DNA of 64,000 bases from positions 135,601-199,600 of the forward strand of contig JBAZJR010000001.1 in NCBI GenBank assembly GCA_041651195.1, in the 5' to 3' direction. Source of the DNA: Patescibacteria group bacterium. GTDB lineage: Bacteria; Patescibacteriota; Patescibacteriia; Patescibacteriales; UBA12465. Below are positions 28,902-53,373 of the stretch, in pieces. Positions within the stretch are counted from its first letter, which is position 1. Every line of letters starts with the position of its first letter. The translations under genes were made by a program, and so were the position numbers. The notes below the pieces were generated by a model. The model was not told the origin of the DNA. It saw only the letters and a list, made by a program, of their open reading frames with translations, and did not search any database.

Positions 28902-28908
28902 GAAAAGC

Positions 28909-30173: not shown

Positions 30174-30175
30174 TT

Positions 30176-30598: not shown

Positions 30599-30602
30599 CC
30601 CT

Positions 30603-32360: not shown

Positions 32361-32371
32361 AGCCAGACATT

Positions 32372-33577: not shown

Positions 33578-33594
33578 GTCCGGCGCGCCGGATA

Positions 33595-33623
33595 TTGCGG
33601 CTGTGGCGGGGAAATGCTATAAT
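33595..33623 (+). promoter_or_regulatory. promoter with an extended -10 upstream of pilin 1
   Basis: TTGCGG, a 17-nt spacer, then TATAAT preceded by TGc. It shares gcgggGAAATGcTATAATTTA with 40282-40303. Confidence 0.5.
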
Positions 33624-33672
33624 TTACGCAGACGATAATTAGATAATAATTAATCATCGAATAAAAAATCGT

Positions 33673-34104: not shown

Positions 34105-34243
34105 GCCTTACCGCTATTGTCCTTTCCCATAGGTATGGTATAATTTTATTAAGATATTTTTTTTGGCGGTTTAAGACAACATTTAATTTTTCAATTAGCG
34201 GCGTTGCCCTTGCTGCTCCGCGGTTGAGATAAATCATATATTT

Positions 34244-34678
34244 ATGAAAAGAAATCACAAAGGCTTTACTTTGATCGAGCTCTTGGTAGTCATCGCCATC
34301 ATCGGCTTGCTATCGACTCTTTCGATCCTAGCCTTGAACACGGCGCGCGCTCGCGCCCGCGATGCTAAGCGCGTCGCTGACGTCAAGCAGATCCAGACCG
34401 CCCTGGAGATGTATTACAATGATGTCGGGACTTATCCGGCAACGGCCTCAATCACGGCCGGCGGCGCGATTGCCAGCCCGAATGGAACTTTCTTGGCCGC
34501 TGTGCCGACTCCGCCGACTCCGTTTGATTTCGTGACTGGAGATTGCGTCGGCCAGCCCGCCTATACCTATACGAGCGCTTCTCCATTCACTACTTACCAG
34601 ATCAACTACTGCTTAGGCGCCCAGACCGGCGGCGTGAGCGCTGGCGCTAAGACTGCTACCCCGGCTGGCATCCAGTAA
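34244..34678 (+). CDS. type IV major pilin (prepilin), paralog 2
   Basis: MKRNHKG|FTLIELLVV... Its central region differs from paralog 1, while the C-terminal ~30 codons are near-identical. Confidence 0.9.
   Translation: MKRNHKGFTLIELLVVIAIIGLLSTLSILALNTARARARDAKRVADVKQIQTALEMYYNDVGTYPATASITAGGAIASPNGTFLAAVPTPPTPFDFVTGDCVGQPAYTYTSASPFTTYQINYCLGAQTGGVSAGAKTATPAGIQ
34253..34428 (+). repeat. 176-bp block identical to 33682-33857
   Basis: See 33682-33857. Confidence 0.85.
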
Positions 34679-36601: not shown

Positions 36602-36610
36602 TGCTATAAT
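36602..36610 (+). promoter_or_regulatory. extended -10 promoter element (TGCTATAAT)
   Basis: It lies about 90 nt upstream of the 36697 start and may drive the minor-pilin operon. Confidence 0.4.
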
Positions 36611-36696
36611 TAAATCAGAAATAAAGGTTCCGGCGGCCTGGTTAAGAGACTTTAGCCGCCGAGTTTAAAGACTCGGGTAACCGAGCTAAATAGCGG

Positions 36697-38130
36697 ATGT
36701 TGAAGCAGATAAAAAATCCGATTTTGCTAGCGGCGTTTTGCCTCGCCGCGGTTTTGGCTATGGCCAAAGACGTCCAGGCGGTTTCCTATATCCACGGCGC
36801 GGCCTGGTGGGGGGATGAGACGCAATATGTCTATATGGACTGTTTAGATGATGTCACCGGCGACCAGCTGGACGCGCCAGGCAATCTGACCGTTCCGCCC
36901 GGCTTCCGTTTTTATTCCGTGCCCTGCACGAATTTGGTTCACCACGTCTCGATCGATGATAACGGCAATTTTGCCGGCGAGGCCTGGAATTATTCCAAGG
37001 GGCTCATCACTTTCGCGGCCACGAGCACGCCGCCCGATAATTATGCTTTTAACGCGAACTGCCTTAATACTTGTAATCTGAGTAATAGCTGTTCGGCTTG
37101 CTATAATGAAACGACCCAGAGAGTTTACGGCTGGGCGCGTGTCCTAGGGGACGGAACCTGGATCAAGTTAGATAGCGCCGCGTCCGCGACCCGGACACCG
37201 ACGGCGATCCAATCCTGGAACTTAAGCAATCCGGTTTTCCCCGGTCACGGGATCCAGCCGGGCGATTTTGTCGGTTCCGCGACGACCACTAGCGACGCGC
37301 TCAGCTTCAATTGCGAAAGCGAATGGAACGGAACTGATTTCGGCACTTGCGCGACGCGGAATTATAAGGCGTACGTCAGCAATCTGGAAATCGGCCATCT
37401 TTCCGCGCCGCATTGGAGCTATAGCGACGCCTGCGATTTCGGCGCGCGGAAAGCGGTCTTGAAATGGCTCCTGTCGAGCGGTACGCAGACAGCTTACCGC
37501 ATCATCATCAATACCGCGAACTCCACTTCCAGCCCGGTTTTTGACAGCGGCAAACAGGTTACCGCCGACACCCGCCAGCTCACTTGTCCGAGCGCGCTGT
37601 GCGTCAACGCCCTGGATTCTTCTCTCTGGACCCCGGCTTACGGCACGAATTATTATTGGTGGATCCAGCTCTGGGACGAGCAGGATCTGCCGACGACCTG
37701 GTATCAATTCGGCGTCATCGATGGCCACGGCGGCAATCTTGATGAGCAGACCGACGGCAATCCGGACGGCGATAACCGGACCTTCACCACCTACGCGCAC
37801 GAGTTTCCTAATCCTTTTTTCACCTGGGAGCCAGCCGAAGTCTTAGTCGGCACTTCCACGCTTTTCATCAGCAACTACGCGAGCGGCGACCCTTTGCCGC
37901 GCAGCTGCTATGGCGACTGCACCTATCTGTGGACAACGAGCGACATCAAGAATATCATCAGCGATCCTTTCGGGGCGACGACTTCCATCAATTTCTTCCG
38001 CCGTTCGACCAATACCGTCGTCACCTTGCGCGTGACCGACGCGAATAATTATTATTGCACCAAGTCTTCGACCCTGACGATCAATTACGGCCTGCCGATC
38101 TGGCGGGAAGTCAAGGCGGAAGAATATTAA
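36697..38130 (+). CDS. secreted Cys-containing hypothetical protein, first gene of the minor-pilin operon
   Basis: Signal peptide (LAAFCLAAVLAMAKDVQA). 477 aa with many Cys, Trp and Asn. Its stop is 16 nt before the first pseudopilin gene. Confidence 0.7.
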   Translation: MLKQIKNPILLAAFCLAAVLAMAKDVQAVSYIHGAAWWGDETQYVYMDCLDDVTGDQLDAPGNLTVPPGFRFYSVPCTNLVHHVSIDDNGNFAGEAWNYSKGLITFAATSTPPDNYAFNANCLNTCNLSNSCSACYNETTQRVYGWARVLGDGTWIKLDSAASATRTPTAIQSWNLSNPVFPGHGIQPGDFVGSATTTSDALSFNCESEWNGTDFGTCATRNYKAYVSNLEIGHLSAPHWSYSDACDFGARKAVLKWLLSSGTQTAYRIIINTANSTSSPVFDSGKQVTADTRQLTCPSALCVNALDSSLWTPAYGTNYYWWIQLWDEQDLPTTWYQFGVIDGHGGNLDEQTDGNPDGDNRTFTTYAHEFPNPFFTWEPAEVLVGTSTLFISNYASGDPLPRSCYGDCTYLWTTSDIKNIISDPFGATTSINFFRRSTNTVVTLRVTDANNYYCTKSSTLTINYGLPIWREVKAEEY

Positions 38131-38146
38131 CGGACTGATCAGGCCT

Positions 38147-38749
38147 ATGAATAAGCATATGAAAACCAGAGGCTTTACCTTGATTGAGATGGTTATCAGC
38201 ATCTCGATCATTTTGATGATCACCGTCTTATTCATCGTCAACTATCATTCCACAGATAAGCGGTCCGACCTGGTGATGGCCGCCCAGAATCTGGTCGCCG
38301 ATCTGCACTTGGCACAGAATAATACCTTGGGCCTGGTGAAATATAATGGCGATGCCGGCGGCGTGCCGCCCGGCGGCTGGGGGATAAGCTTCGATACCGG
38401 CAACAACGCCTATACGCTGTTCGCCGACCTAGACCGGCCGCCCGCGCCCGGCAGTCCTAGCCCGGGCTATATGAAATATGATCCGAGTTCGGAAGGGAAT
38501 ATCCGTTACGGCGCCCGCGTGACGCAGCTACCGTCCCAGATCGAAATCATGGAGCTCCGGACCGGCGGCGGCTTGCTTAATCCGCGCGTCAACGTGAGCT
38601 TTCTCCCGCCGGATCCGCAGACTAACATTTATCGGGTCGATACGGCCGCGACTTCGACCGTCCTAGAGATCAAGCTGCGCGAAACGCAGAGTAATTCTAC
38701 TAAGACCGTCCGGGTTAATTTCCTGGGCTTAGCTGAGGTCGTCGATTAA
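38147..38749 (+). CDS. prepilin-type minor pilin / pseudopilin
   Basis: MNKHMKTRG|FTLIEMVISISIILMI is a class III signal. Confidence 0.8.
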   Translation: MNKHMKTRGFTLIEMVISISIILMITVLFIVNYHSTDKRSDLVMAAQNLVADLHLAQNNTLGLVKYNGDAGGVPPGGWGISFDTGNNAYTLFADLDRPPAPGSPSPGYMKYDPSSEGNIRYGARVTQLPSQIEIMELRTGGGLLNPRVNVSFLPPDPQTNIYRVDTAATSTVLEIKLRETQSNSTKTVRVNFLGLAEVVD

Positions 38750-38753
38750 ATTT

Positions 38754-39242
38754 ATGAAAAGAGGCTTTTCCCTCGTGGAAATAATCACTATCCTATTTAT
38801 CATTTCATTGGGCCTGGTCGGCATCCTCTCTCTTCTGATTCAGAATATCCAGAGCCAGGGCTATAATAAGAATAACCTGATCGCCTACCAGCTGGCGCAG
38901 GAGGGAGTAGAATTGATCCGGAAAGTCAGGGATTCTAATTGGCGCACGGCGAACGAACCCCTGGACGAATTATTTACGGCCGGGCAATACTATATGGATT
39001 ATCTGGATAGCGAGCCGCAGCCGTATTCGGGTTCGCCCGCGCAGCTGGTCTTGAAGCAGGATGCGGCCGGTTTTTATTTCCACGATCTGGCGTCCACCGC
39101 GACAAGCAGCATCTTTTCGCGCCTCATCGTCTTACAAAATGTCAGCGCCGCTTCGGTCCGAGTCATCGTCCGGGTTTCCTGGGAGGATCGGGAGCGCAAT
39201 TACGCTTATGATTTGGAAACAATGCTCTACAATTGGCGCTAG
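38754..39242 (+). CDS. prepilin-type minor pilin / pseudopilin
   Basis: MKRG|FSLVEIITILFIISLG is a class III signal. The gap from the upstream gene is 4 nt. Confidence 0.8.
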   Translation: MKRGFSLVEIITILFIISLGLVGILSLLIQNIQSQGYNKNNLIAYQLAQEGVELIRKVRDSNWRTANEPLDELFTAGQYYMDYLDSEPQPYSGSPAQLVLKQDAAGFYFHDLASTATSSIFSRLIVLQNVSAASVRVIVRVSWEDRERNYAYDLETMLYNWR

Positions 39243-39297
39243 GCGTCCGGCTAAGGTCCGGGCGCGATTTCTCCGGAAGCGGGCCGATTCCTCCGCG

Positions 39298-39831
39298 ATG
39301 TCCGGTTTTTCTCTGATGGAAGTCGTGGTTTCCGTCTCGCTTTTCGTCGTGATCATCCTTTCGTCTACGGAAATCTTCAAATTGGTCATCGATAGCCAAA
39401 GGAGCGCGCTCGCGGCGCAGAATGTCCAGGAGAGCTTGAAATATTTTTTGGAAGTGATCGGCAAGGAGATCCGGATGGCCCAGGTCAATAAGGGGGTCTG
39501 CCCGCTCATTCCGCCCAGCAAGGTCTTCTTAGTGACCAGCGGGACTCTGGGCGACACGCTTTCTTTCAAGAATTATTATAACCAATGCGTGACCTACTCG
39601 CTGGTGGCCGACGGCTCTAACCAGCGTTTCCAGATCGCCCGCAATACCGCCGTTGATTTTATTTCGCCGCTCAAAGTCCAGATCGATAATCTCAACTTTA
39701 CTTTGAACGGAGGCGTCGGATCACAGTCGATGGTAACAGTCAATCTGCGGGCGCACGCGCTCGATGAAGCGAAATCCAAGTCGGATATGGTCATCCAGAC
39801 CAGCCTGACTTCGCGGTATTATAAGGAATAA
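39298..39831 (+). CDS. prepilin-type minor pilin / pseudopilin
   Basis: MSG|FSLMEVVVSVSLFVVI at the internal ATG 39298. The track ORF start at 39061 would overlap the previous gene out of frame. Confidence 0.7.
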   Translation: MSGFSLMEVVVSVSLFVVIILSSTEIFKLVIDSQRSALAAQNVQESLKYFLEVIGKEIRMAQVNKGVCPLIPPSKVFLVTSGTLGDTLSFKNYYNQCVTYSLVADGSNQRFQIARNTAVDFISPLKVQIDNLNFTLNGGVGSQSMVTVNLRAHALDEAKSKSDMVIQTSLTSRYYKE

Positions 39832-39835
39832 GATT

Positions 39836-40237
39836 ATGATGAGAATTGACCAGCTCCGTAAATATAGCCAAAAATATAGCCGAAAAGACAGGCCCGCCAG
39901 CGCGATGATCTTGACGATGTTTATCTTGTCCGGCATGCTGATCGTCGCGATGAGCGGCGCCTATGTCGTTTGGCTGGGCATCAAGGCCGGCGGCATCCAG
40001 GCGCAGTCGACCAAAGCCTACTACGCGGCCGAAGCCGGCGCGGAACGCCTGCTCTATGAATTGAATTATGGCGCCTTCGTTTATGAAGATCCGTCCACGG
40101 CCGTGATTTTCAGCGACACCCTGAATTCCGGCGCCGTTTATAATGATTATTTTATCTCTTCGCCGCCTCTGGTTTTCCAGGCAATCGGCGATTACCAGAG
40201 CACGAAACGGAGCGTAGAAATCCGTTTCGGAGATTGA
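39836..40237 (+). CDS. PilX-N-like minor pilus protein
   Basis: Basic N-terminus, a transmembrane helix (ILTMFILSGMLIVAMSGAYVVWL), then AYYAAEAGAERLLYEL as in PilX N-terminal domains. Confidence 0.55.
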   Translation: MMRIDQLRKYSQKYSRKDRPASAMILTMFILSGMLIVAMSGAYVVWLGIKAGGIQAQSTKAYYAAEAGAERLLYELNYGAFVYEDPSTAVIFSDTLNSGAVYNDYFISSPPLVFQAIGDYQSTKRSVEIRFGD

Positions 40238-40271
40238 TTTATTATTAGCTCTTTTTTAAGGGCTTTTTTGC

Positions 40272-40300
40272 TTGGCAAGCCGGGCGGGAAATGGTATAAT
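40272..40300 (+). promoter_or_regulatory. promoter with an extended -10 upstream of the first giant gene
   Basis: TTGGCA, a 17-nt spacer, then TATAAT preceded by TGg. Confidence 0.5.
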
Positions 40301-40338
40301 TTAAGCAAGTAAAAAAAGTTGTAAAACTTTAGTTTTTA

Positions 40339-43300
40339 ATGCCTCGATTTCATAGGTGGCAATCAAAAATTATCATAGCCGTTTTATTATTAAGCGGTAG
40401 TTTTTTGTTATTCTCTGACGCAGAAAACGCGCAGGCCTATCACGCTACTTCCAGCTATAATAAAGCTTTTAATGATACCCTGACTTCTGAGAATTGGAAC
40501 GACCTGTTCAGCGATTTCGTTAATACCTGGCTCCCGGTTTCTCTGAACGGTCCGGTCGGCATCGCGACACCCGCGCCAGCGGCCGGGCTTAGCGTCAACG
40601 GACCGATTAATGCCACCAGATTATTTACGACCAGCAACGTCGGCATAGGGACGACAAATCCCGGCTCCAACTTGCATATTATCGGCAGCCTGGACGCGAC
40701 CGGCACGGTCAACGGCACCGGCCTTTGTATCGCCGGCGTCTGTAAGACCGATTGGAGCGTCGTCGGCGCGACAAGCGGCTGGACAATCAACGGGACGACG
40801 GTCTATAAGACTGATATTAATGGCAATGTCGGGATTGGGACGACTAATCCAGCCAATAAATTAACTATTGTTGGCTCTCCAGCCAGTACATGGGAAACAG
40901 CAACACTACGAGTCAACGGATCTGCAACCGAAGGGCTATGGTTCGGTTATAATACGACGAATGATGTCGGTTTGATCGGAGCGGCTGAAGATAATATTGC
41001 TCATAGAAATTTGTCCTTAGCGCCTACCGGCGGCAATGTTGGCGTCGGGACGACAGCGCCGACGCATAAATTAGAGGTCAATGGGAACATATCTATCAGC
41101 GGCTCCAGTCCGCAGACGCTTAGGATGGGGGCCGCAGCTACGCTTACTCGTGATACGACGACTGGCCTTACTACGCTGGCCACAAATAACTCTCATATCG
41201 CCCTCATGCCGGTAAATGGCAACGTCGGGGTGGGGACGACTGCGCCTAGTAGTAAGTTGCATGTTAATTTAGGAAGTACTGGTGCGTTAGGTTTTAACTC
41301 TGGACTTTGGATACAAAATAATTTTGGCGATGTAGCGACTAATCGTGGCGCAGGTATTACAATGCAAAATCACGATGTTTATGTAGGTGGTATTTATGCA
41401 ATCAGACCAGTTTCCAGTTGGAGGGGTGATTTGGCATTTTATACCCATAATGATAGCAGCGGAAATACTTTTGGAACCACTTTTACGGAAAAAATGCGGA
41501 TTCAATACGATGGCAACGTTGGGATTGGTATAACCAATCCGAGGGCGAAGTTGCAGGTTCTGGGAACCATACAGTCTGATGTGACTGAAGGCGGTAGCGC
41601 GTTTATAGCTAGAAATTCATCCGGAGTAAACCGGTTTGCCTTGAATACTATTTTAACCGGAGGATGGACCATGTATGACTTTGGCGGTAGCGCTTGGAAC
41701 GCCGGAATCTCTCAAGTAAATGGCAACGTCGGTATCGCCAAGACCAATCCCACCGCTACTTTAGATGTCACCGGCTCCATCAACGCTTCCGGCACGGTCA
41801 ACGGCACTGGCCTTTGTATTGCTGGTGATTGCAAGGTTTCCTGGCCGTCCATCGTCTCGGCTGGCGGCGGCAATCTCTGGAACGGCACGACGACCGGCGC
41901 GATCTGGAATGCTAATGGTGTTAACAATGTCGGGATCGGTAAAACTAATCCAGAAAATTTGCTTGACGTCGCTGGCGCGACAAAAGCTTATAATTATTTT
42001 ACCAATTCAAACAATGCAGGCTTTTTCGCAAGCGGGAACAATGATTACGGAACAGGCTTAATCAGTGATGCGTCTGATAATCTGTATTTGAGGGCCGGAG
42101 CGTCAAGTAATGGCAAGTTTACTTTATTAACTACCGGCAACGTCGGAATTGGGACGACAACCCCTATCCGTAATTTAGAAGTTAATTCCGGCAGCAGTGG
42201 AGTGGTGGCCCAATTTACTTCCAGTAATACTTCTAATAATTATTCTTTAGTTGACTTATATAATGCTAGTACTGGAAAATATTTTAGATTAGGTTTATTT
42301 GATAGTGGAGTCGCCGGTATCGGGGAGGGGTCCAGTATTATTCCTGATATTTCTATTAATTCATCCGGCAACGTCGGAATTGGGACGACTACGCCTTCTA
42401 ACAAGCTACATGTTTATGGTACATCTGGAAGACTTGCGGTTTTTGGTGATGTCGGAGTTTCTACCCCAACCGCGACTCCTGTTAATATTTCTTTCGGTTC
42501 AACATATGGAAATAGTACTCCAGGCAGTGTTAATAATTTAAAATGGGATTTGTTTTCCAGTAGTTCGTCTGGTAGTAGGTATGGTATAGGTATGTCGGCC
42601 AATTTAATGGAATTTCAGTCCGGTCCAAGTGGAGGATTGGGTTTCTTTGTAAACCAGGGAAGTGAAGCGATGAGGATTATTTCAAATGGCAACGTCGGCA
42701 TCTCTAAAACTAACCCCGGCGCCACTCTAGACGTCACTGGCTCCATCAACGCTTCCGGCACGGTGAACGGCACCGGCCTTTGTATCGCCGGTGACTGCAA
42801 AGTCTCCTGGCCGTCTATCGTCTCGGCCGGTGGAGGTAACTTATGGAACGGCACGACGACCGGCGCGATCTGGAACGCTAATGGCGCTAATAACGTGGGT
42901 ATCGGGACGACCGCGCCGGGAGCGAAGTTGGAAGTGAAAGACGGAGATGTCAAAATAAATAGTGGAAAACCAGTGGTAGATTTACGGGAATCTGACCAAA
43001 CATTGCCTGCTGGATTATGGCGGATTCAGACACAAAATAATCAGATGGGTTTTGTTCGTAATACGGCTGTGGCAGGAGATTTTTCTTCTGGTTTCACGCC
43101 TTTGTACTTTGATGCAAATAATTATGCGATTTTTAATGCAGGCAACGTCGGTATTGGGACGACTGCACCAGAAGCGAAGTTGGAAGTTGCAGGAAACATT
43201 AAAACGACAGGGGCAATATATAATTCTTATAAACAGTTTATATTTGACCCAGGTGCAGTTTCTACAAAATATACTCAATATCTTGGAACATTTAGTATTT

Positions 43301-46300
43301 CAAATGGAGTAGTTGAAATTATTATAGAAGATAGCGGAAATTCTCACGGTGCAAGTAGCTTTTTTAGAGTAACCCGTCACTATGACAGAACCCCTATTGT
43401 CCAAATCCAAAACAATGGACTAATGGGAGTTAATTATCAAATATACTATAGAAATTTGACACCAAATAATTATGAGTTATTTTTTGTTGATGGGAGAGCG
43501 AGTAATGGCAATAATGTCACATATAATGTATATACAAGACAACAAGGAGCTATTATCAGTGAAAGCATAAGTGCAGCTAATGACACCGGTATCAATTTGG
43601 CTAATATAGGAGTAGTAGTATCAGAATCCGGCAACGTCGGAATTGGGACGACGGGACCGAGTGAGAAATTGCATGTAAATGGTGGTAATATTCAGGTAAC
43701 AGGAGCTACTGATTCTGCTTATTTCAAAGCGCTTGACACCAGTAATGGAGTTCAGACTTGGTTTGGGGTCTCCTCGGCAGCAAGAGGTTTTATAGGGACA
43801 ATTACTAATCATGCTCTTGGTTTTAGAACAAATAATGCCGACAGACTGCTAATAGATGCTTCTGGCAACGTCGGTATCATGAAAACAAATCCCGGTACGA
43901 CCCTAGATATCGTCGGCGGCATCAACGCCTCCGGCACAGTGAATGGCACCGGCCTTTGTATCGCTGGAGTCTGCAAAACCGATTGGGGCGGCGTTGGCGC
44001 GACAAGCGGCTGGACGGTCAACGGCACGACGGTCTATAAGACTGATGTAAATGGGAATGTCGGGATTGGAGCGGTCGGCCCGGAATCTAAGCTAGAGATT
44101 TATGAGGCAACTCCGCTTGGCGGGACATTAGGAAATTATCAGATTTTAACAACGCTTCGAAGTCCGGGCGGATCAGGCGGTAATAATGTATATAATCGAA
44201 CGTGGTCACTTAGAGATGCTGCTGGAACGACTTGGACGACTTGGCGAGAGCATAACGGTCTAGGAATAGACACCTCATATGCTACCCCGTTGACGGATCG
44301 TGTATGGTGGGAAAGAGACCCGTATAATCAGATTCAGTCATGGGGCTCAGAGAGTTCTGCTTGGCTTACTATTAATAATGGCAACGTCGGCATCGGGACG
44401 ACTAATCCTCGGGCTCCTTTAGAAATTTATAAAGATGGCGCTGCTAACATTGGAAGTTTTTTGTTAGACCAGCCGACTATCCCTACTGGTTCAACTAGCA
44501 AAGGCCCACATTTTTTCTTTAAATCAGGTGGTATCGATAGGGGTTGGTTTGGTTTTTTTGACAACTCTGCTCATGGAAATGGTACGGCCCTGAATCTGCG
44601 TTCGGCAGGCGATGTTAGACTGGGCGCATCTATCGCCAATGCTCCAGATATGATTATAAAAGTAGGCGGCAACGTCGGTATCTCTAAAACTAACCCCGCT
44701 GCGACTCTAGACGTCACCGGCTCTATCAACGCTTCTGGCACAGTTAACGGCACCGGCTTATGCATCGGCGGCGACTGCAAGGTCTCCTGGCCGTCCATCG
44801 TCTCCGCCGGCGGCGGGAACCTTTGGAACGGCACGACCACTGGGGCGATCTGGAACGCGAATGGGACGAATAATGTGGGCATCGGGACGACGAATCCGGA
44901 TTATAAATTGGTAGTTAATGGCGGAAATTTGAGAATTAATGACGCTGGTTATTTGATGTTGACAAATGATGCTGAGGATTCACATATATATTTTCAAAAC
45001 ACGGGTACTTCGGCACAAAGACAGTTGGAAATTAAATATACTGGAGCAGGGACTCCAGTTATGGTCATAAATAATGCAGGCAACGTCGGCATCGGAACAA
45101 CAGCTCCGACCGAAAGACTGCAGGTCGCGGGCACTTTCGAAGCCCAGCAGTATAAATTGCCTAAGCAGTTTTATGGCCAGTATAATGATCTCTCAAACAG
45201 GATAGTCAGCACCGCGGCTTTTCAGGGTTGGTCTGACGCCTTTCAATCTAAGCCGATCAGCGATGTGGAATATTGGAACGGTAGCAGCTGGGTGGCTTGG
45301 ACGGATAAGGATATGACACCCTTGTTTAGCGGCAATCGGAGCACCTCCGTCCCTATCCCGGTAGACCGTTCCCGATTCCGCCTGACAGTCCAGGCTGGAT
45401 CTTGGTTCGGCGGCGGATTGCTTAATATTTATGAAGAATGGACCAGCGCGCATACCGGATATTCCTTCATCGTCGAAAGGAGCACCGATAAAGTTTCGTG
45501 GACGACGATAGACACCGGCACCGTTCCTAACGGCACTTATCAGGCCTATATCGCTAATTTGCCGCATGTCGTTGATGGTTATTTCAGAATCACTTTAGAT
45601 TTTGGGACGCTATCAGTCCCTCAGACCCTGGTTTGGATAAGAGCCCTGACTTCGAGGTTATCATACGGCGTCCAGCAGGGGTTGCCTCTCTCCACCTCCT
45701 ATAACAAAACCATAACTATGCAGGGTGGGCTAGTCGTACAAGGGACCAGCAATTCTTCAGTCGCTGGTAATTTAGGTATTGCCAAGACTAATCCAGGCAC
45801 GACCTTAGATGTTACCGGCTCCATCAACGCTTCCGGCACCGTGAACGGCACCGGCCTCTGTATCGCTGGCGATTGCAAGGTTTCCTGGCCAGCGATCATC
45901 GCGGCTGGCGGCGGCAACCTCTGGAGCGGCACGACGACCGGCGCGATCTGGAACGCGAATGGGACGAATAATGTGGGTGTCGGGACGACGGCACCGGGGG
46001 CTCGTTTGGAAGTCAAAGATGGTGGTACGGCCGGCTCCGTAGTTGCCTCTATACGACAAGATGATGACAGTACCTATGGGTTGGTTATTAATAATGGATC
46101 CTGGTCAGGGACCCTCACCAATGGTTTAAGGCAGTACGTTAATTTAGCGGGAACTTATGCCGCGATTGACCACTATGAGGCAGGGGGGGCAAAATTAATT
46201 TTGAATCCTAGCGGCGGCAACGTCGGCATCGGCACCACCGCACCCGTATATAAATTAGACGTCAACGGTCCAATAAGAAGCAACGCCACGGTTTTTGTGC

Positions 46301-47157
46301 CGTCTTTAACCGCCGATACCAGCGGCTATGGGCTTCGGGTAGGAAGCAGCTATGCCACCCAATTAGCTATGTCGTCTAATATGGGAGCTGATTTTGAAAT
46401 GATGCACAATACCTTAATTGAAAGAAATGCTGCGAATTCATCTGTTTATAAATGGGTAACCAGCCACGCATCCTTCGGTAGTCGAGGCATCCGTTTCGAT
46501 TATGGTGGGGCTGGGTCCGGCATCGTTTTTTTTGCTGATAGCGTTACTACAACCGCGGGCACCGCCTTTACTCCTACCCAGAGAATGATTATTCAGAATG
46601 ACGGCAATGTCGGTATAAATAAACTTTATCCTGGCACGACCCTTGACGTCACCGGCTCCATCAACGCTTCCGGCACGGTGAACGGCACTGGCCTCTGCAT
46701 CGGCGGCGACTGCAAGGTCTCTTGGCCATCTATCGTCTCGGCTGGCGGCGGCAATCTCTGGAACGGCACGACGACCGGCGCGATCTGGAATGCTAATGGG
46801 GTTAATAATGTCGGAATTGGGACAACGGCGCCGCTCGCGGCCCTGCATGTCAACGGCGGCTTGATCTTGAAGCGGACAACGGTTGCGGATACGGATTATA
46901 CCGCTCAAGCTACGGATTATATCATCGGCTATAGTTCGCTCAGCACGAACCGGACCGTCACTTTGCCTGACGCCTTATGCACGCCGGGACGTTTCTTCGT
47001 TGTCTTAGATGAGAGCGGCAGCGCCTCTAACGCCGTCAAGATCATCATCAATCCGGAAGGCGCGACGCCGATCGTCGGGCAGGCGAGCTTTTCCTTGTCC
47101 GGTCCTTATAATTCCGTCTATGTTTTCTGTGGCAGTTCGGCCTGGTATGTGTTATAA
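40339..47157 (+). CDS. giant secreted repeat protein (2272 aa), tail-fibre-like [10 protein letters not shown] repeats plus Cys-loop modules
   Basis: Uninterrupted 6.8-kb ORF with signal peptide ending AQA|Y. By eye there are about 24 copies of (G/N)NVGIGTTxPxxKL(E/D/H)V and 7 copies of the [10 protein letters not shown](A/G)G(D/V)CK module. It also has a jelly-roll-like insert and a unique C-terminal domain. Confidence 0.92.
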   Translation: MPRFHRWQSKIIIAVLLLSGSFLLFSDAENAQAYHATSSYNKAFNDTLTSENWNDLFSDFVNTWLPVSLNGPVGIATPAPAAGLSVNGPINATRLFTTSNVGIGTTNPGSNLHIIGSLDATGTVNGTGLCIAGVCKTDWSVVGATSGWTINGTTVYKTDINGNVGIGTTNPANKLTIVGSPASTWETATLRVNGSATEGLWFGYNTTNDVGLIGAAEDNIAHRNLSLAPTGGNVGVGTTAPTHKLEVNGNISISGSSPQTLRMGAAATLTRDTTTGLTTLATNNSHIALMPVNGNVGVGTTAPSSKLHVNLGSTGALGFNSGLWIQNNFGDVATNRGAGITMQNHDVYVGGIYAIRPVSSWRGDLAFYTHNDSSGNTFGTTFTEKMRIQYDGNVGIGITNPRAKLQVLGTIQSDVTEGGSAFIARNSSGVNRFALNTILTGGWTMYDFGGSAWNAGISQVNGNVGIAKTNPTATLDVTGSINASGTVNGTGLCIAGDCKVSWPSIVSAGGGNLWNGTTTGAIWNANGVNNVGIGKTNPENLLDVAGATKAYNYFTNSNNAGFFASGNNDYGTGLISDASDNLYLRAGASSNGKFTLLTTGNVGIGTTTPIRNLEVNSGSSGVVAQFTSSNTSNNYSLVDLYNASTGKYFRLGLFDSGVAGIGEGSSIIPDISINSSGNVGIGTTTPSNKLHVYGTSGRLAVFGDVGVSTPTATPVNISFGSTYGNSTPGSVNNLKWDLFSSSSSGSRYGIGMSANLMEFQSGPSGGLGFFVNQGSEAMRIISNGNVGISKTNPGATLDVTGSINASGTVNGTGLCIAGDCKVSWPSIVSAGGGNLWNGTTTGAIWNANGANNVGIGTTAPGAKLEVKDGDVKINSGKPVVDLRESDQTLPAGLWRIQTQNNQMGFVRNTAVAGDFSSGFTPLYFDANNYAIFNAGNVGIGTTAPEAKLEVAGNIKTTGAIYNSYKQFIFDPGAVSTKYTQYLGTFSISNGVVEIIIEDSGNSHGASSFFRVTRHYDRTPIVQIQNNGLMGVNYQIYYRNLTPNNYELFFVDGRASNGNNVTYNVYTRQQGAIISESISAANDTGINLANIGVVVSESGNVGIGTTGPSEKLHVNGGNIQVTGATDSAYFKALDTSNGVQTWFGVSSAARGFIGTITNHALGFRTNNADRLLIDASGNVGIMKTNPGTTLDIVGGINASGTVNGTGLCIAGVCKTDWGGVGATSGWTVNGTTVYKTDVNGNVGIGAVGPESKLEIYEATPLGGTLGNYQILTTLRSPGGSGGNNVYNRTWSLRDAAGTTWTTWREHNGLGIDTSYATPLTDRVWWERDPYNQIQSWGSESSAWLTINNGNVGIGTTNPRAPLEIYKDGAANIGSFLLDQPTIPTGSTSKGPHFFFKSGGIDRGWFGFFDNSAHGNGTALNLRSAGDVRLGASIANAPDMIIKVGGNVGISKTNPAATLDVTGSINASGTVNGTGLCIGGDCKVSWPSIVSAGGGNLWNGTTTGAIWNANGTNNVGIGTTNPDYKLVVNGGNLRINDAGYLMLTNDAEDSHIYFQNTGTSAQRQLEIKYTGAGTPVMVINNAGNVGIGTTAPTERLQVAGTFEAQQYKLPKQFYGQYNDLSNRIVSTAAFQGWSDAFQSKPISDVEYWNGSSWVAWTDKDMTPLFSGNRSTSVPIPVDRSRFRLTVQAGSWFGGGLLNIYEEWTSAHTGYSFIVERSTDKVSWTTIDTGTVPNGTYQAYIANLPHVVDGYFRITLDFGTLSVPQTLVWIRALTSRLSYGVQQGLPLSTSYNKTITMQGGLVVQGTSNSSVAGNLGIAKTNPGTTLDVTGSINASGTVNGTGLCIAGDCKVSWPAIIAAGGGNLWSGTTTGAIWNANGTNNVGVGTTAPGARLEVKDGGTAGSVVASIRQDDDSTYGLVINNGSWSGTLTNGLRQYVNLAGTYAAIDHYEAGGAKLILNPSGGNVGIGTTAPVYKLDVNGPIRSNATVFVPSLTADTSGYGLRVGSSYATQLAMSSNMGADFEMMHNTLIERNAANSSVYKWVTSHASFGSRGIRFDYGGAGSGIVFFADSVTTTAGTAFTPTQRMIIQNDGNVGINKLYPGTTLDVTGSINASGTVNGTGLCIGGDCKVSWPSIVSAGGGNLWNGTTTGAIWNANGVNNVGIGTTAPLAALHVNGGLILKRTTVADTDYTAQATDYIIGYSSLSTNRTVTLPDALCTPGRFFVVLDESGSASNAVKIIINPEGATPIVGQASFSLSGPYNSVYVFCGSSAWYVL
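40690..40850 (+). repeat. Cys-loop module, type B copy (…[31 protein letters not shown])
   Basis: It recurs at 43903-44070, 49204-49320, 50224-50400 and 50926-51105 (approximate bounds). Confidence 0.75.
41761..41939 (+). repeat. Cys-loop module, type A copy ([54 protein letters not shown])
   Basis: The protein sequence is nearly invariant across copies at 42727-42905, 44707-44885, 45805-45984 and 46642-46820. The DNA differs mostly at third codon positions. Confidence 0.85.
42727..42905 (+). repeat. Cys-loop module, type A copy
   Basis: See 41761-41939. Confidence 0.85.
43903..44070 (+). repeat. Cys-loop module, type B copy
   Basis: See 40690-40850. Confidence 0.75.
44707..44885 (+). repeat. 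Cys-loop module, type A copy
   Basis: See 41761-41939. Confidence 0.85.
45805..45984 (+). repeat. Cys-loop module, type A copy
   Basis: See 41761-41939. Confidence 0.85.
46642..46820 (+). repeat. Cys-loop module, type A copy
   Basis: See 41761-41939. Confidence 0.85.
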
Positions 47158-47202
47158 TCATAGTAATAATAAAGCGGACGGGAAATCCGCGCGGGTTATA
47201 TT

Positions 47203-50200
47203 ATGAAGTTTAGAATCATAAATTTAAAGAGAGCGGCAGTCCTCAGTTTTTTTGGTATCCTCAGCCTCTTTTTCGGCCTGTCTGGCGCCGAAGCCGCTTT
47301 CATAACTTCCGGCGGTTCGCAATGGACCGATGTCTCCGGGGGGATCTATTATAATAGTAATGTGGGTATTGGGACGACTAGTCCGGGAAGTGGGAAGTTG
47401 CAGGTTTTGTCCAGTGTTAATTCTTTGTATCCGACAATAGGATATTTTGAATGGAACGGCACGACAGGACTCCCCCATTTTGTGTTAAGGAATAATTCTG
47501 CGAGCACCAGCACTAACAGCATGGTATTGCAAATATGGGGGAACAATAGTTCTGGTGTGGCTAAATTTAATAATATTGTTTTTAATGCAGATAATTTATC
47601 ATATAGCTTCAACGGTAACGCTACGCAGTATAGTTTTGCCAGCAACGTCGGCATCGGAAAGACTAATCCCGGCACTACTTTAGACGTCACCGGCGGCATC
47701 AGCGCTTCCGGCACGCTTAACGGCACTGGTCTCTGTATCGGCGGCGATTGCAAGGTCAGCTGGACCTCTATCGTCGCGGCGGGCGGCCTGCCTGTTGGCA
47801 CGAACGGCCAGACGATCGCAAACAGTAGCGGTTCCTGGGTAGCCAGCTCCAATCTTTTTAATAATGGCACGAATGTCGGTATCGGGACGACGAATCCGAG
47901 GCAGAAATTAGAAGTTAATGGAAACATCAGTTTAGGTATGCAATCTACCACTGGCGCTGGGACTCCATATGAAAAGTTTATTGGAACGGTGAATTTGGAT
48001 GGTAATCCAGGCGCTGGTGGAATGTTTATTGAGCAAGATGCCAATGGAAATAACTATTTAAAGTTTCGGGTTTTAGAAGCAGGAGTTGCATATCGTGATC
48101 CTGTAACCATTAATTACACGGGCAACGTCGGTATTATGAAAACCAATCCCAGCACGACCCTAGATGTCGTCGGCGGGATCAGCGCTTCCGGCGCGGTGAA
48201 TGGCACCGGCTTATGCATCGGCGGGGACTGTAAGACAACTTGGCCGACAATCGTCCAGGCCGGCATGCCGACTGGCACGGCCGGACAGACTTTGCGGAGC
48301 GACGGGACGCAATGGCTGACTAGTTCCACGATATTTAATAATGGCACGAATGTGGGGATCGGGACGACTAATCCGGGACAAAAATTGGATGTTGTCGGGA
48401 CTGGCAAATTTTCTACTAACGTTGAAGCGCAAGTCGCCGTAAAAGCGAAGGATTATTTACTAATCGATAGCGATGGAGATTTTACTGGCAGTAATTATTG
48501 GACATTTAGCCAAGATTCCAGTACTCGCCATCTAGAATTCGATTACGGAGGAGTGGGCTCGAGCGAAAAGGTAGTATTTACGAGCAGCGGAAACGTCGGT
48601 ATACAAACTATCGGTCCTCGCGCGCCGTTAGAAGTAGACGCTAACGATGGGAGTGGTGTTAGCATTCTGGCATCTAATATTATAGAAATAGCCGGGTATA
48701 GAGATGTTGCTCAATCATCATCGGTCACTGTCAGTAGCGGGAATTTAATGTATGGCGGACCAACAGCAAAAAATGGCAAGGGATATTGGCAAATCTCATC
48801 TTTTCCGGCTACGATTACTTTAGATACTCGTGGTTGGTGGTCTTATCCCGGCATATCGTTTACTGCCGAGAATGTCCATAATTATCCAAGCGGGGGAGGG
48901 AGAAAATTACCAGCCAGCTTTTTAGTAGAAATGAGTAATGACGGATCGAATTGGTGGACTGTTGATGACGTAACTAACCAGACTTCCGCTTTATATTATA
49001 AAAGTGAACAAAGTGGTTCCGGGAAATATGTTAGAATAACCGCGAGGGCGCCGCAGTCGGGTGAAACGTCAAGCAGTATTGCTAATATACAATTATTTCA
49101 AACTTATAGAGCTGGCAAGGGCCCATTTACGGTATCGCCAGAAGGGAATGCCGTTTTCATAGGCGGCAATGTTGGTATAGGAAAGCAAATTCCTATGGCT
49201 ACTTTAGATGTCGTTGGTGGCGGCAACTTTACTGGCACGGTGAACGGCACCGGCCTCTGTATCGCCGGCGTCTGTAAGACCGACTGGAGCGGCGTCGGCG
49301 CGACGAGCGGTTGGAGCAGTGATGCCGCAGCTATCTACGCCGCTGATACTACCGATAATGTCGGAGTGGGGACGACTAATCCGGTCGGAAAATTTGATGT
49401 CCGGACTTATGGCGGCGATGCCAGGATCACTTTTTCTAGCACCGATGATGAATATCCGCGGATGTATCTAGGCGGAGATAGCGCCAGCATCGCCGGAGTG
49501 ATCAATCGCAAGTCTAACGCGACGCTTTATTTCGGTGAAGAATCTGATACCGGCGGCTATGTTTTCCGGGGAACCGGTGGCTACTCTTTCGCTGGCAGCC
49601 GGCTATCCCTATCTTCCGGTGGCAACGTCGGCGTCGGCACTACGAATCCCTTATCTAAATTTGAGACTTATAATGGCAACATCGGCGTTGCTAATAATGT
49701 CGCCTCCGGCGCTAACGCGAGCGGGCTTATTTTCTATCATACCGCCGGCTTAGGCAGCAATTGGTACTCCGGCCTGGTCCCGTATGTGACGACCAGCTAC
49801 GACCGGGTCGGTTTGAAATTCTTGACCGCGAATTCGGGCGCGGCTACGGAGAAGATGGCGATTACGCCGGATGGGAATGTGGGGATTGGGACGACGGCAC
49901 CGGGGGCGAAACTTGAAGTTTTAGGAGATCACCAAGCAATCCGCGCGCGAGGGACAGCTACTAGTACAAATTGGTCGGGCAGAATTATCGCGGGTGGTCC
50001 CAATGTCGCATTTTTAATGGGTGAATATAACACTATGGCGTGGCTTGGAGCTCATAACGCAGCTCTTAGTGCTTGGTCGGATTTTTATATTAATCCAGAC
50101 GGAAGTAATAAATTGTATCTCGGTGGTACTGGCGATGGTAATCCGGCTACGCTTAATCCAATCGTAACTGTTAATAACGCAACCGGTAACGTGGGCATCG

Positions 50201-52506
50201 CCAAAACTAGTCCCGCCGCGACTCTGGACGTCACTGGCTCTATCAACGCCTCCGGCACGGTCAACGGTACCGGCCTCTGCATCGCTGGCGTCTGTAAGAC
50301 GGACTGGGGCGGCGTCGGCGCGACAAGCGGCTGGACGATCAACGGGACGACGGTCTATAAGACTGATACAGCGGGAAATGTGGGGATTGGGACGACGAAT
50401 CCGACAGCAAAGATGGAGTTAGTTTCCAATGATGCAAATCCTAGCTTGTATATAAATACTGGTGCAAGTCAAACCGGCAATTTGATTTCTGGAAAAGTAA
50501 ATGGAGATCAAAGATTTTATTTCAATTCGGATGGAGATCTGTATTTTTCAAAAGGTTCGGCTGCGCATATTTATAATGATGCATCGGGCGGTCTTGGACT
50601 AAGTGGAAGGAGCACACTAAGTGATATATATCTTAATGGTACGGGCAACGTCGGGATCGGCACGACCACGCCAACGTATAAATTAGATGTTAACGGCACT
50701 TCTCGTTTCCGGTCTACAGGTTTATTTGACGGCAATTTAACTACTTATGGCACGTTAACAACCGCCTCAAACCTCATTGCTAATTTTGGAGCGACTATTA
50801 ATAATAATGGCGGCGCTACTGCCTCTTATGATTTTGGCGTCAAGAATGGTCTGAGTGGATATTCTTTGTATGCGCAAGCTTCATCTGGCAATGTCGGCAT
50901 TGCCAAAACTAATCCCACCGCTACTTTAGACGTTACTGGCAGTATCAACGCTTCCGGCACGGTTAATGGCACCGGTTTATGCATTGGCGGAGTATGTAAG
51001 ACCGACTGGGGTGGCGTGGGCGCGACGAGCGGCTGGACGATCAATGGGACGACGGTCTATAAGACTGATACGGCTGGGAATGTCGGGATTGGGACGACGG
51101 ATCCAAGCTCAAAGTTTCATGTTGTCGGGAATTCATACTTAAATGGGACATTGAATGTTTCAGGGAATACTTCATTTTCTGGCAATACGCATAATTTTTA
51201 TCAGTCGGTAAGCCCTTATAGTACTCTTAATATTGGAAGATCTGGTATGCAGCGTTTTTCCATGACAGTAAATGATATGACTGGAACCATGACATCCTAT
51301 CAACAAGATGAGACCACGGGCGATCATATTTGGGCTTTTGATATTGTCTCTTCGACTTCCGGCCGCCAAGACTACAGGTTTAGAAATAATGGTTCTGAAC
51401 TTTTTGCCATTGATAAAGTTGGCAACGTCGGCATCGGCAAGACTAACCCCGGTTCGAACCTCGACGTCACCGGTAGTGTCGCTGCTTCTGGCACCGTGAG
51501 CGGCACGAGCCTTTGTATCGCCGCTGATTGCCGGGCGGCCTGGCCTACCGGTGGTGATGGCGGGATAACCTCTATTAACGGCTTGACCGATTTGACCCAG
51601 ACTTTTGCGACCGGCACTTCGGGCACGGATTTTGGGATTTCTTCTTCCGGAACAATCCATACTTTCAACCTGCCTTCCGCTTCCGCCGCTAACCGCGGCC
51701 TCTTGACCGCTGCGGACTGGAGCAGTTTTAATGCTAAAGTCTCCAGCCAATGGACGACTAACGCTTCCGGCATCTACTATAGTTCCGGTAACGTCGGCAT
51801 CGGGAAGACCAATCCCGCCGCGAACCTGGACGTTGTCAGCAGCATCAACGCTTCCGGCACGGTGAACGGCACGAGCCTCTGTATCGGCGGCGATTGTAAA
51901 GCGAGCTGGGCGGCTTGGACCAATAGTGGCGTTAATATGTACAGCAGTAATTCTGGCAACGTCGGCATCGGTATAACCAATCCGGCCGCGAAATTGGATG
52001 TGGGCGGCGTGGTTAACGCGACCGGCGCTTCCTTGTCCGGCGATTTGAATATGAACGGCTATGATATTACCAATATTGATAAACTCTATGTCGGCACGAT
52101 CGACCCGCTCTATAAGTTAAATGGCGTCAATTACGCGACCTATGCCGCCTCTGTCGCCGGCGGCGTCAAGGAAGAATATACCGGTCGGATCAAGCTGAGC
52201 CGTCAGAACGCGGCTGGAGAATATGAGGCGGCTATTGATTTTACCGCCGTAGCCGAGGGCGGCGATCTCTGGGTTTGGCGGCGGATTGTTGACTTTGATC
52301 GGGACAACATCGAGGTCTTGATCAGCCCCTATGGCCGATTAGCCCAGATTTATTATATAATAGAAGGAGAGAAGATTATCTTCCGATCCAATCGTCCGGT
52401 TGAAGCTTCCTATCGTCTGACTGGCAAACGCTTTGACTGGCGCGACTGGCCGACTCGCCCTGCGGATCAGACGCTGCAAGGCCGGGAGGTCGAATTACCG
52501 AACTAA
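47203..52506 (+). CDS. giant secreted repeat protein (1767 aa), paralogous architecture with an F5/8-type-C-like insert
   Basis: 5.3-kb ORF that starts 45 nt after the first giant, with signal peptide ending AEA|A. By eye there are about 18 [10 protein letters not shown] motifs and 7 Cys-loop modules (at about 47680, 48160, 49204, 50224, 50926, 51460 and 51825). A discoidin-like block lies at about 48700-49105. Confidence 0.92.
49204..49320 (+). repeat. Cys-loop module, type B copy
   Basis: See 40690-40850. Confidence 0.7.
50224..50400 (+). repeat. Cys-loop module, type B copy
   Basis: See 40690-40850. Confidence 0.75.
50926..51105 (+). repeat. Cys-loop module, type B copy
   Basis: See 40690-40850. 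Confidence 0.75.
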
Positions 52507-52570
52507 GGGATGGAATGGCCACATTAAATTATTTAGAGATTAATAAATTTATATATTAATAATTAAAATT

Positions 52571-53263
52571 ATGGACAACAAACCAATGGACAGCAAGCCA
52601 GCGGAGAGTAGCGCCAAGAAGATTTGGATCCTCTTGGGTGCGCTGGTCGTGATCGTGATCATTATCATTATTGCGGCTACTCAGGGGAAGAAGGCCCCAG
52701 CCCCGACGGAAAACACGCCGGCGGCCGGAGGTGAGACAACGGAAACCGGAGAGACGACGCCGGGGGCCGCTGAGACCGGTGCCGAAGCGCCGGTTCAGAA
52801 TCTGGAAGACAGCAAGGTCTATAGCCTCGATAACGCTCAGGCAGCCATCCCGGGCGCGAGCTTAGTCACGGCGGGAGAGAACAAGGTCGTGACGCCGGAA
52901 GGCAAGGCCGTCAAGAATGACGCTATCCCGAATAGTCCGGAGGCGCCGAAGCCGGTCTTAGTCGCTAAGGATCAATTGCCGGCGACCAGCATCAAGCTGG
53001 ACATCGGCAATGGGAAGATTACTCCGAGCTCGTTTACGGTGACTTCCGGCCAGGTCGTTAATCTGGCGGTTTCTTCGACGGACGGCCAGGTGCACGTCTT
53101 CATCTTCACTAATTCCGCGGTCGGCGCGATCGCGATGGGCGTCGGCGGCGGCGAAACCAAGGCCATTACTTTTAACGCTCCAGCAGCCGGCACTTACGAG
53201 TTCCGCTGCGATGTCCCCGGACACAAGGAAAAGGGCGAAGTCGGGACGATGATCGTCAAATAA
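52571..53263 (+). CDS. membrane-anchored cupredoxin-domain protein
   Basis: N-terminal transmembrane segment, a Pro/Glu/Thr/Ala linker, and a C-terminal block GQVHVFIF...AGTYEFRCDVPGHKEKGEVGTMIVK. This resembles the Cupredoxin_1 pattern (H ... YxFxCxxPGH...G). Confidence 0.7.
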   Translation: MDNKPMDSKPAESSAKKIWILLGALVVIVIIIIIAATQGKKAPAPTENTPAAGGETTETGETTPGAAETGAEAPVQNLEDSKVYSLDNAQAAIPGASLVTAGENKVVTPEGKAVKNDAIPNSPEAPKPVLVAKDQLPATSIKLDIGNGKITPSSFTVTSGQVVNLAVSSTDGQVHVFIFTNSAVGAIAMGVGGGETKAITFNAPAAGTYEFRCDVPGHKEKGEVGTMIVK

Positions 53264-53287
53264 CAATAGAGATTTCCGCAAAGATAA

Positions 53288-53315
53288 AACATCCGCTTTC
53301 GGGCGGATGTTTTTA
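53288..53315 (+). terminator. rho-independent terminator
   Basis: aacatccgc tttcgg gcggatgtt followed by ttt. This is the first convincing terminator after the promoter at 40272. Confidence 0.65.
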
Positions 53316-53373
53316 TATAGGAAAATATGCTATGATTACCATATATATACGCTAGCCATAATATAAGCTAGCC

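Follow-up and report, generated by a model that had tools for sequence, protein, structure and literature searches.

Very long MAT-like fibre proteins encoded behind type IV pilus minor pilins are candidate host-recognition fibres in a Patescibacteria lineage

In fimU-pilVWXY1 operons, the gene located after pilX encodes PilY1/PilC, the adhesin of the type IV pilus tip. In Saccharibacteria (TM7x), adhesion involves the minor pilins themselves, as PilX1 and PilX2 are modular adhesive minor pilins with an adhesive module fused to a PilX-type pilin, while the model proposed for this organism also invokes additional close-range surface adhesins (PMC11623550). The superfamily of mosaic adhesive trimers (MAT) in Bdellovibrio was described in 2024 by Caulton et al. 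and consists of proteins that carry a signal peptide, are displayed on the surface as trimeric beta-helix fibres and combine a conserved N-terminal domain with diverse adhesive tips; its non-S74 class includes Bd2133, Bd1334, Bd2439, Bd2734 and Bd2740, and the supplement of that study includes Omnitrophica and other predators, with no Patescibacteria among them (PMC10769870). Here, we analysed a 64-kb stretch (64,000 nucleotides, contig JBAZJR010000001.1, positions 135,601 to 199,600; hereafter the window) of a metagenome-assembled Patescibacteria genome (GCA_041651195.1), in which a complete type IV pilus cluster without a secretin has two giant genes at its end. Both gene products, NCBI proteins WC456_00830 (giant 1) and WC456_00835 (giant 2), are annotated as 'hypothetical'. 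We consider that they are probably lineage-specific, MAT-like and separately transcribed surface fibres that serve host recognition alongside the pilus. An earlier note on this DNA, made by a model from the sequence alone, had described the giants as the direct continuation of a minor-pilin operon and had stated that no described system couples minor pilins to such tail-fibre-like proteins. The latter statement stands in part: the fibre family itself is the one described in 2024 as MAT (PMC10769870), while the literature searched contained no description of MAT-like fibres in Patescibacteria or of their link to minor pilins. The coordinates, sizes and gaps of the open reading frames given in that note were confirmed; all features below are on the forward strand of the window unless stated otherwise.

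Giant 1 (40339..47157, 2272 aa) and giant 2 (47203..52506, 1767 aa) were characterised by profile, structure database and motif searches. PHROG 9942, annotated as 'tail fiber protein', matched giant 1 with E=7e-57 and giant 2 with E=2.6e-28, PHROG 18345 matched them with E=3.5e-27 and 8e-16, respectively, and PHROG 3269 also matched both, which bears out the statement in the earlier note that the repeated motif of these proteins is of tail-fibre type. A phmmer sequence search of the PDB returned only fibre proteins of Bdellovibrio for the giants, with 8OND (Bd2133) at E=3.4e-8 for giant 1 and E=1.8e-4 for giant 2; 8OJN and its relatives matched both proteins, 8OML was retrieved as well, and the alignment of Bd2133 with giant 1 spans two consecutive shaft repeats. 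The pattern NVGIGTTxPxxKL was located at 25 sites in giant 1, of which the one at aa 1306 is chance-like, and at 16 sites in giant 2, so that giant 1 holds at least 24 and giant 2 at least 16 real copies. This motif equals the MAT capping-loop consensus V-G-G/N-pi-x-x-P-x-x-x-L (PMC10769870). Both giants start with Sec-type signals (..AQA↓YH in giant 1 and ..AEA↓AF in giant 2) that were read from the sequence and are kept in the orthologs, and the earlier note was correct in distinguishing them from prepilin signals. On these grounds, the two giants are more probably than otherwise cellular relatives of phage tail fibres that belong to the MAT type and, within it, to the non-S74 class. Judged by their sequences, they are new and very long non-S74 members of the MAT/tail-fibre-like world with a lineage-specific head.

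In addition to the capping-loop repeats, a highly conserved Cys-loop module of ~85 aa occurs in 14 copies, seven per giant, and constitutes an extra element compared with the MAT proteins of Bdellovibrio. These modules are near-identical as protein within and between the giants, while their DNA copies are 63-88% identical; recombination or gene conversion between the modules could reshuffle the fibres.

Searches of Pfam and NCBIfam gave no match at all for giant 1 and only a sub-threshold discoidin match for giant 2. This match marks a discoidin-like (F5/8 type C) insert at 48874..49083 (PF00754 E=2e-4, PF22633 E=9e-3, below the gathering cut-off), which is a candidate carbohydrate-binding domain. 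A PilY1, vWA or propeller domain was absent from both giants according to Pfam and NCBIfam, and the S74 domain (PF13884) was found in neither of them by Pfam. Of the three families that the earlier note had named for profile comparison, tail fibres were recovered through PHROG, discoidin was recovered weakly and PilY1 gave no match. The C-terminal tip of giant 1 (aa 2174-2272, 46858..47154) was modelled with AlphaFold2 (AF2) at a predicted local distance difference test score (pLDDT) of ~90 and is predicted to form a phage gp9/gp10-like beta-sandwich. Foldseek aligned this model in the PDB with T4 gp9 (rmsd 1.7 A over 77 columns), CBA120 TSP4 and the Solidus tailspike, and a comparison with viral models (BFVD) yielded 170 matches at E<=1e-3, some of which are named tail fiber or Gp9/Gp10. 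The PHROG tail fibre matches, the homology of the shaft to MAT, the gp9/gp10-like fold of the tip and the weak discoidin match support the view, already expressed in the earlier note, that the giants are fibre-like and adhesin-like proteins.

With phage tail fibres and tailspikes (PHROG 9942 and 18345, T4 gp9/gp10), the giants share homologous shaft repeats and, in giant 1, the gp9/gp10 fold. They differ from phage fibres, including the S74-chaperone types represented by the L-shaped fibre of T5 and the endosialidase of K1F, in that they are cellular proteins with Sec signals and a conserved chromosomal position, without an S74 chaperone domain and without phage neighbours. A prophage or tailocin remnant, the tail-fibre genes of which lie by chance beside a pilus cluster, would account for the PHROG matches and for the tip of giant 1, but this origin is highly improbable and effectively refuted: Sec signal peptides are present on both giants, the genes around them encode pilins, cupredoxins and MopE-like proteins with no other phage-type gene alongside, and the same chromosomal position is occupied across the whole lineage. 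The presence of several such giants per genome also argues against a remnant.

The comparison of related loci revealed a conserved N-terminal end and strong variation behind it. In giant 1, a head of ~65 residues (aa 34-98, 40438..40632) follows directly after the signal peptide and is a candidate anchoring end; the first giants of all related loci retain it, with the consensus ..Y-x-K..NGTL..EWNxL..DFVNTW.P..GPxGI. The rest of the first giant is only 25-40% identical between loci, compared with 40-90% for the flanking proteins, and the giants range from ~600 to >4000 aa. As a homolog search with the head alignment gave just three short pieces and failed to recover known members, 1.84 billion representative proteins were searched exhaustively instead; a few dozen proteins among the 150 matches listed contain the full-length head, at approximately residue 30 in all but one of them. 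The sole listed protein with an internal head (P0258, aa 1113-1172) may be a fusion or have a mis-called start. Giant 2 has no head and a tip different from that of giant 1; its tip type was found again in other giants. Overall, 120 homologs share a shuffled set of at least five C-terminal tip types; many of these homologs carry the S74 chaperone PF13884, and multiple such giants occur per genome. A conserved end for retention combined with a diversified end for binding is the logic of MAT proteins.

With respect to tip types, first giants with a gp9/gp10-like tip always precede a second giant with a different N-terminus (3/3 loci: the window, L002 and L084), and first giants with other complete tips are immediately followed by the cupredoxin gene (6/6 loci: L003, L007, L090, L102, L116 and L117). 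For this small sample, the association of tip type with the presence of a second giant suggests, by analogy with the T4 long tail fibre, a fibre in which two proteins might be joined end to end.

The giants share several features with the MAT proteins of Bdellovibrio. Both have a signal peptide, a homologous beta-helix shaft (8OND), the same capping-loop motif, a conserved N-terminal end (here in giant 1, with a putative role in retention), mosaic C-terminal tips and several paralogs per genome, and both belong to organisms living on other bacteria. In contrast to the Bdellovibrio proteins of ~1000 aa, the giants are 2-4 times longer, with 1767-2272 aa here and up to >4000 aa in relatives, and the head of giant 1 is lineage-specific and comprises ~65 aa, whereas the MAT domain comprises ~130 aa, a comparison that was made by size only. 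Two further differences concern the context: unlike Bdellovibrio, this organism is reported to lack an outer membrane, and the giants are fixed behind type IV pilus minor pilins with a conserved promoter of their own.

This promoter bears on the claim of the earlier note that the pilin operon 'feeds directly' into the giants. Within the pilin operon, neighbouring genes overlap or lie no more than 55 nt apart, and in several genomes they are fused on to YbeY. Directly after the stop codon of the PilX-like gene, a weak terminator-like hairpin with a T-run was located (40247..40264; -7.4 kcal/mol, z=-2.4), and a sigma-70-type promoter (40272..40300; TTGGCA-17-TATAAT with TG upstream) lies 38 nt 5' of the ATG of giant 1, representing the best match in the region 35700-55500. 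A two-hexamer promoter with an extended -10 element (TTGGCA-17-TGnTATAAT or a near variant) was found in the gap before the first giant in 28/29 distinct loci checked, in the related loci mostly ~36 nt before the ATG. The exception is L090, in which only the TGCTATAAT part is present with a poor -35. A hairpin of ≤-7 kcal/mol with a T-run precedes the promoter in 8/20 related loci, with several reaching -11 to -18 kcal/mol. Furthermore, AbiEi/AbiEii pairs, a nucleotidyltransferase/HEPN pair or remnants thereof are inserted in the gap between the PilX-like gene and the giant at five loci (L002 9000-9935, L085 5919-7459, L098 6234-6783, L100 12950-13420 and L116 6735-8001); the inserts are upstream of the conserved promoter in some loci and downstream in others, which makes the gap a repeated landing site. 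At its 3' end, the unit of giants and cupredoxin is closed by an intrinsic terminator with a 12-bp stem (53288..53313; -16.3 kcal/mol, z=-5.7, followed by a T-run), as the earlier note had recognised.

Due to the conserved promoter, the frequent terminator hairpin and the toxin-antitoxin insertions, we concluded against a direct continuation of the pilin operon into the giants, and for the same reasons their adjacency was rejected as proof of co-transcription. The giants and the membrane cupredoxin are instead likely to form a separately transcribed unit, as far as can be read from these sequence signals. The PilC protein of Neisseria is encoded away from its minor pilins. Hence, separate transcription is compatible with a PilY1-like role.

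A strong, conserved promoter would also be expected for an abundant surface coat or structural fibre, i.e. an S-layer-like or spacing layer without specific host recognition that remained beside the pilus through frozen synteny. Such a coat would be in line with the synteny of the entire region, housekeeping genes included, and with the lack of any adhesin domain above the curated thresholds. Nevertheless, we regard it as distinctly unlikely, since tips that are mosaic and swappable, together with extreme divergence beyond a conserved head, typify receptor-binding fibres, the fold of the tip is that of a phage receptor-binding or adaptor domain, one insert is discoidin-like and the homologous MAT fibres bind prey glycans (PMC10769870).

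The pilus genes preceding the giants were examined by Pfam, synteny and structure prediction. The machinery at 27849..34678 comprises PilM, three small genes in the PilN/PilO position, PilB, PilC and two major pilins (PilM_2 3e-42, T2SSE 2e-127, T2SSF 4e-57, N_methyl 1.5e-8 and 9e-10), and its gene order is syntenic across all related loci. It is followed in the window by FemAB and YbeY, by a block consisting of a secreted protein of 477 aa (sec477) and the minor pilins, and by the giants, with gaps of 16, 4, 55, 4, 101 and 45 nt in order from sec477 to giant 2. A strict prepilin pattern identified exactly five N-termini in the window, namely the major pilins at 33673 and 34244 and the genes at 38147, 38754 and 39298, so that the three class III prepilin signals of the earlier note were recovered both by reading the N-termini and by the pattern. 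Minor pilin A (38147..38749; signal RGFTLIEM, N_methyl E=1e-5) is GspH/FimU/ComGD-like, with the GspH, ComGD and ComGE models matching at E=1e-6 to 5e-5, below the curated cut-offs. Minor pilin B (38754..39242; RGFSLVEI, N_methyl E=4e-3) is PilV/GspI-like, with a full-length match to TIGR02523 PilV (E=2e-7, below the cut-off), and minor pilin C (39298..39831; SGFSLMEV, N_methyl E=0.04) is PilW/GspJ/PpdC-like (PRK10557 E=5e-6, GspJ 0.07, both below the curated cut-offs). The fourth gene (39836..40237) encodes a PilX/GspK-like protein of 133 aa without a Glu at position 5. The window copy itself gave no Pfam match, but 7/8 of its orthologs match PF14341 PilX_N over the full length (E=3e-4 to 0.1), and the PilX-like label, which the earlier note had proposed, holds through these orthologs. 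As the weak profile matches are consistent in their order and PilX_N is recovered via the orthologs, the four genes look like the core H-I-J-K (FimU/PilV/PilW/PilX) set of the pilus tip, as judged by sequence comparison. The PilX-like gene lies immediately 5' of the promoter and the giant at all examined loci except L005, where minor pilin C takes this place.

The block is opened by sec477 (36697..38130), whose signal peptide and Cys-rich N-terminal part are followed by Ig/FnIII-like domains in tandem. In every case it heads the minor-pilin block, and it travels with the three prepilins in a rearranged genome. The family comprises 169 homologs, with 41-81% identity among the matches listed, and every homolog with a source name is assigned to Patescibacteria or Falkowbacteria; 13 Cys residues are invariant across 66 homologs and the C-terminal motif ..LPxWxEVKAE is near-invariant. 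In the AF2 model (pLDDT 86), Foldseek detected similarity to tandem FnIII and rhamnosidase Ig domains, and no clear structural match for the Cys-rich N-terminal part. Considered as a possible PilY1 analogue, sec477 is not PilY1-like in its predicted fold, as AF2 and Foldseek indicate tandem Ig/FnIII-like sandwiches and neither a beta-propeller nor a vWA domain. Accordingly, no PilY1-like protein was seen in the cluster by Pfam or by the structure comparison of sec477.

Similar to PilY1/PilC, the giants are encoded directly after a minor-pilin set of the H/I/J/K type and are large, non-pilin, Sec-exported and presumably adhesive proteins; they differ in having neither a C-terminal propeller nor a vWA domain, in their repeat-fibre architecture, in their separate transcription and in a tie to the pilus that is positional. 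With TM7x, the locus shares a setting in which host attachment of Patescibacteria is organised around type IV pili and minor pilins. Unlike in TM7x, the PilX-like protein is bare, without an adhesin module, and the large adhesin candidates are separate Sec-exported fibres.

The linkage between giants and pilins was examined from two directions, starting either from the fibre module (one genome per species) or from sec477 (metagenomes). In the former survey, fibre-motif proteins were detected in Patescibacteria, Bacteroidota, Verrucomicrobiota, Omnitrophota, Halobacteriovorax and archaea. Prepilin genes occur within ~6 kb upstream in the five loci with the closest module (L005-L009) and in two weaker matches (L028 and L062), whereas, among the remaining loci of motif proteins, those with 4-9 kb of upstream sequence have no prepilin gene on either side. 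As the motif proteins of other Patescibacteria and of other phyla are without pilin neighbours within this distance, the linkage is specific to one lineage. Starting from sec477, 34 loci were obtained in the metagenome scan, and the giant comes next in 18/18 that extend past the PilX-like gene. The order of pilins and giant was also kept in all nine cases in which giants were looked up directly, the most distant of which show 63-67% PilB identity and 32-39% PilX-like identity and one of which lies in the complete genome AP029158.1, as well as in the close loci from the genome scan. After removal of duplicates, 30/30 distinct loci reaching past the minor-pilin genes have a giant next. The coupling of giants and prepilin genes that the earlier note had proposed for survey thus holds for the orthologs of all related loci and does not extend to the same-motif proteins of other lineages.

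One rearranged locus deserves separate mention. In CAYYDR010000002.1, the block is split into a first part with YbeY, the PilX-like gene, promoter, giant and cupredoxin and, ~24 kb on, a second part that runs from He_PIG through sec477 and minor pilins A-C to a promoter and a head-bearing giant and lacks a PilX-like gene ahead of the giant. This contig (L005/L007/L012) is recorded as 'uncultured Gammaproteobacteria', while the genes it contains and their order match the Patescibacteria lineage examined here, and it probably represents a mislabelled bin.

These data lend themselves to a second explanation of the giants, in which they form a pilus-tip fibre: the head of giant 1 would dock on the PilX/GspK-like cap or on sec477, and the fibre, made retractable by the pilus, would functionally replace PilY1. 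The giant holds the position of PilY1 after minor pilins in H-I-J-K order, is adjacent to them in all 30 distinct loci, and follows both halves of the split block of CAYYDR010000002.1 as a promoter with a head-bearing giant. Further points in favour are the small PilX-like protein without an adhesin module, together with the lack of a visible PilY1-like protein in the cluster, and a mirror-tree analysis of 24 loci, in which the head evolves at the pace of the pilin operon and the highest correlations of its distances are with sec477 (r=0.69) and the PilX-like protein (r=0.66), compared with 0.46 and 0.47 for minor pilins A and B. The authors of the MAT study also raise a possible interplay with type IV pili (PMC10769870). 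We nevertheless consider a pilus-tip fibre rather unlikely. Its argument is one of gene position, the mirror-tree signal is weak, and the conserved terminator and promoter as well as the repeated insertions of mobile modules separate the giants from the pilin operon. Moreover, a strong dedicated promoter would better suit an abundant surface protein than a factor needed once per pilus, the giants are without a PilY1, vWA or propeller domain, and giant 2 has no head that could dock. The related MAT fibres are found on the cell surface, with no pilus dependence reported (PMC10769870), and the placement of a trimeric fibre on an asymmetric 1:1:1:1 tip complex would create a symmetry mismatch. A more elaborate version, in which the pilus is a retractable delivery arm with the head docked on the PilX/GspK-like cap or sec477 and carrying an exchangeable MAT-like fibre of ~90 nm, appears unlikely. 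In such an arrangement, a second fibre would be joined end to end wherever the first giant has a gp9/gp10-like adaptor at its end, and the host range would be re-tuned by tip swaps and by recombination among the near-identical Cys-loop modules.

Returning to the favoured explanation of separately transcribed surface fibres beside the pilus, five points weigh against it. First, the adjacency of the giants survives rearrangement, with both split halves in CAYYDR010000002.1 still adjoining a giant, which hints at a closer tie to the pilus. Secondly, the head distances that favour sec477 and the PilX-like protein over minor pilins A and B are a weak hint in the same direction. Thirdly, a Sec-secreted fibre needs retention in a cell without an outer membrane, and a head that docks on the pilus would solve this problem, favouring the pilus-tip fibre. 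Fourthly, the whole 30-kb region is syntenic in the lineage, housekeeping FemAB and YbeY included, so that adjacency is weak evidence for any functional link, the cooperation proposed here included. Finally, monomer AF2 models the giant 1 C-terminus with confidence over no more than the last ~100 residues and reaches a pLDDT of ~50 for the last shaft module, which would be expected if folding of the chain requires a trimer, and the prediction is therefore no structural test of the shaft.

For the function of the locus as surface fibres, we infer that the giants form trimers, are displayed on the surface, bind the host and cooperate with the pilus. Both giants would be exported by Sec and, by homology, assemble as long trimeric beta-helical fibres with a length of ~70-90 nm per protein, as extrapolated from 142 A for the 370-residue fragment of Bd2133. 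These fibres would stand on the surface of a host-dependent Patescibacterium without an outer membrane, where the ~65-aa head of giant 1 may be the end retained on the cell, and host-cell surfaces may be recognised by the rapidly evolving shaft, by lectin-like inserts and by C-terminal tips that can be interchanged. Transcription of the fibre unit would start from 40272-40300, after the FemAB-YbeY-sec477-minor-pilin operon, and end at the 53288 terminator. In the one lineage concerned, the named members of which are labelled Falkowbacteria, the unit is fixed immediately 3' of the GspH/I/J/K-type pilus-tip genes. Pilus and fibres might then be two co-located arms of one host-contact apparatus, of which the pilus reaches and retracts while the fibres bind, with the fibre not being a pilus subunit.

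The last gene of the fibre unit encodes a membrane-anchored cupredoxin-like protein (52571..53263; Cupredoxin_1 4e-10, Copper-bind 7e-5), with an N-terminal hydrophobic helix and a C..H..M pattern visible in the sequence. A cupredoxin follows the giants in nearly all loci, even where further downstream synteny ends (L118). In the window, the genes 3' of the giants comprise two cupredoxins, a MopE-like protein and a He_PIG/Por_Secre_tail protein. The region 52571-58784 is a run of copper-protein-like genes and includes, besides the membrane cupredoxin, a 498-aa protein without a family match, the second cupredoxin and a 1104-aa protein with MopE-type metal-binding motifs. It is followed at 59006-61111 by a 701-aa protein with He_PIG and Big_9 Ig domains and Por_Secre_tail, the C-terminal sorting signal of Bacteroidota type IX secretion, which is unexpected in a Patescibacterium.

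Two further observations concern the region upstream of the pilus cluster. A ComFC-like gene (double zinc ribbon and phosphoribosyltransferase; 25834-26499, minus strand) is located two genes upstream of PilM, with synteny kept in relatives, and the pilus cluster may therefore also serve DNA uptake. In addition, a low-GC stretch at 8761-17000 (0.32-0.41 compared with ~0.51 elsewhere) starts at a tRNA-Ser (8761-8848) and carries, on the minus strand, genes for a serine recombinase (8770-10329) and an ORF2/G2P-type Rep protein (10516-11484); a Bro-N protein and an NYN nuclease are also encoded there, and the stretch is probably an integrated mobile element.

How uncultivated Patescibacteria find and hold their hosts is largely unexplained outside the Saccharibacteria, and the locus described here provides a concrete and testable candidate for one large environmental lineage, consisting of hypervariable phage-like fibres with a conserved anchoring head and a fixed address by the pilus-tip genes. 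The MAT concept, which was developed in 2024 for the predator Bdellovibrio, would thereby extend to organisms reported to be without an outer membrane and to proteins that are 2-4 times longer. Such genes could be traced in metagenomes by their conserved head and promoter, both of which are simple markers, and host range could then be predicted from the tip types. If it is true that the fibre rides on the pilus, the locus would represent a new way of arming a type IV pilus.

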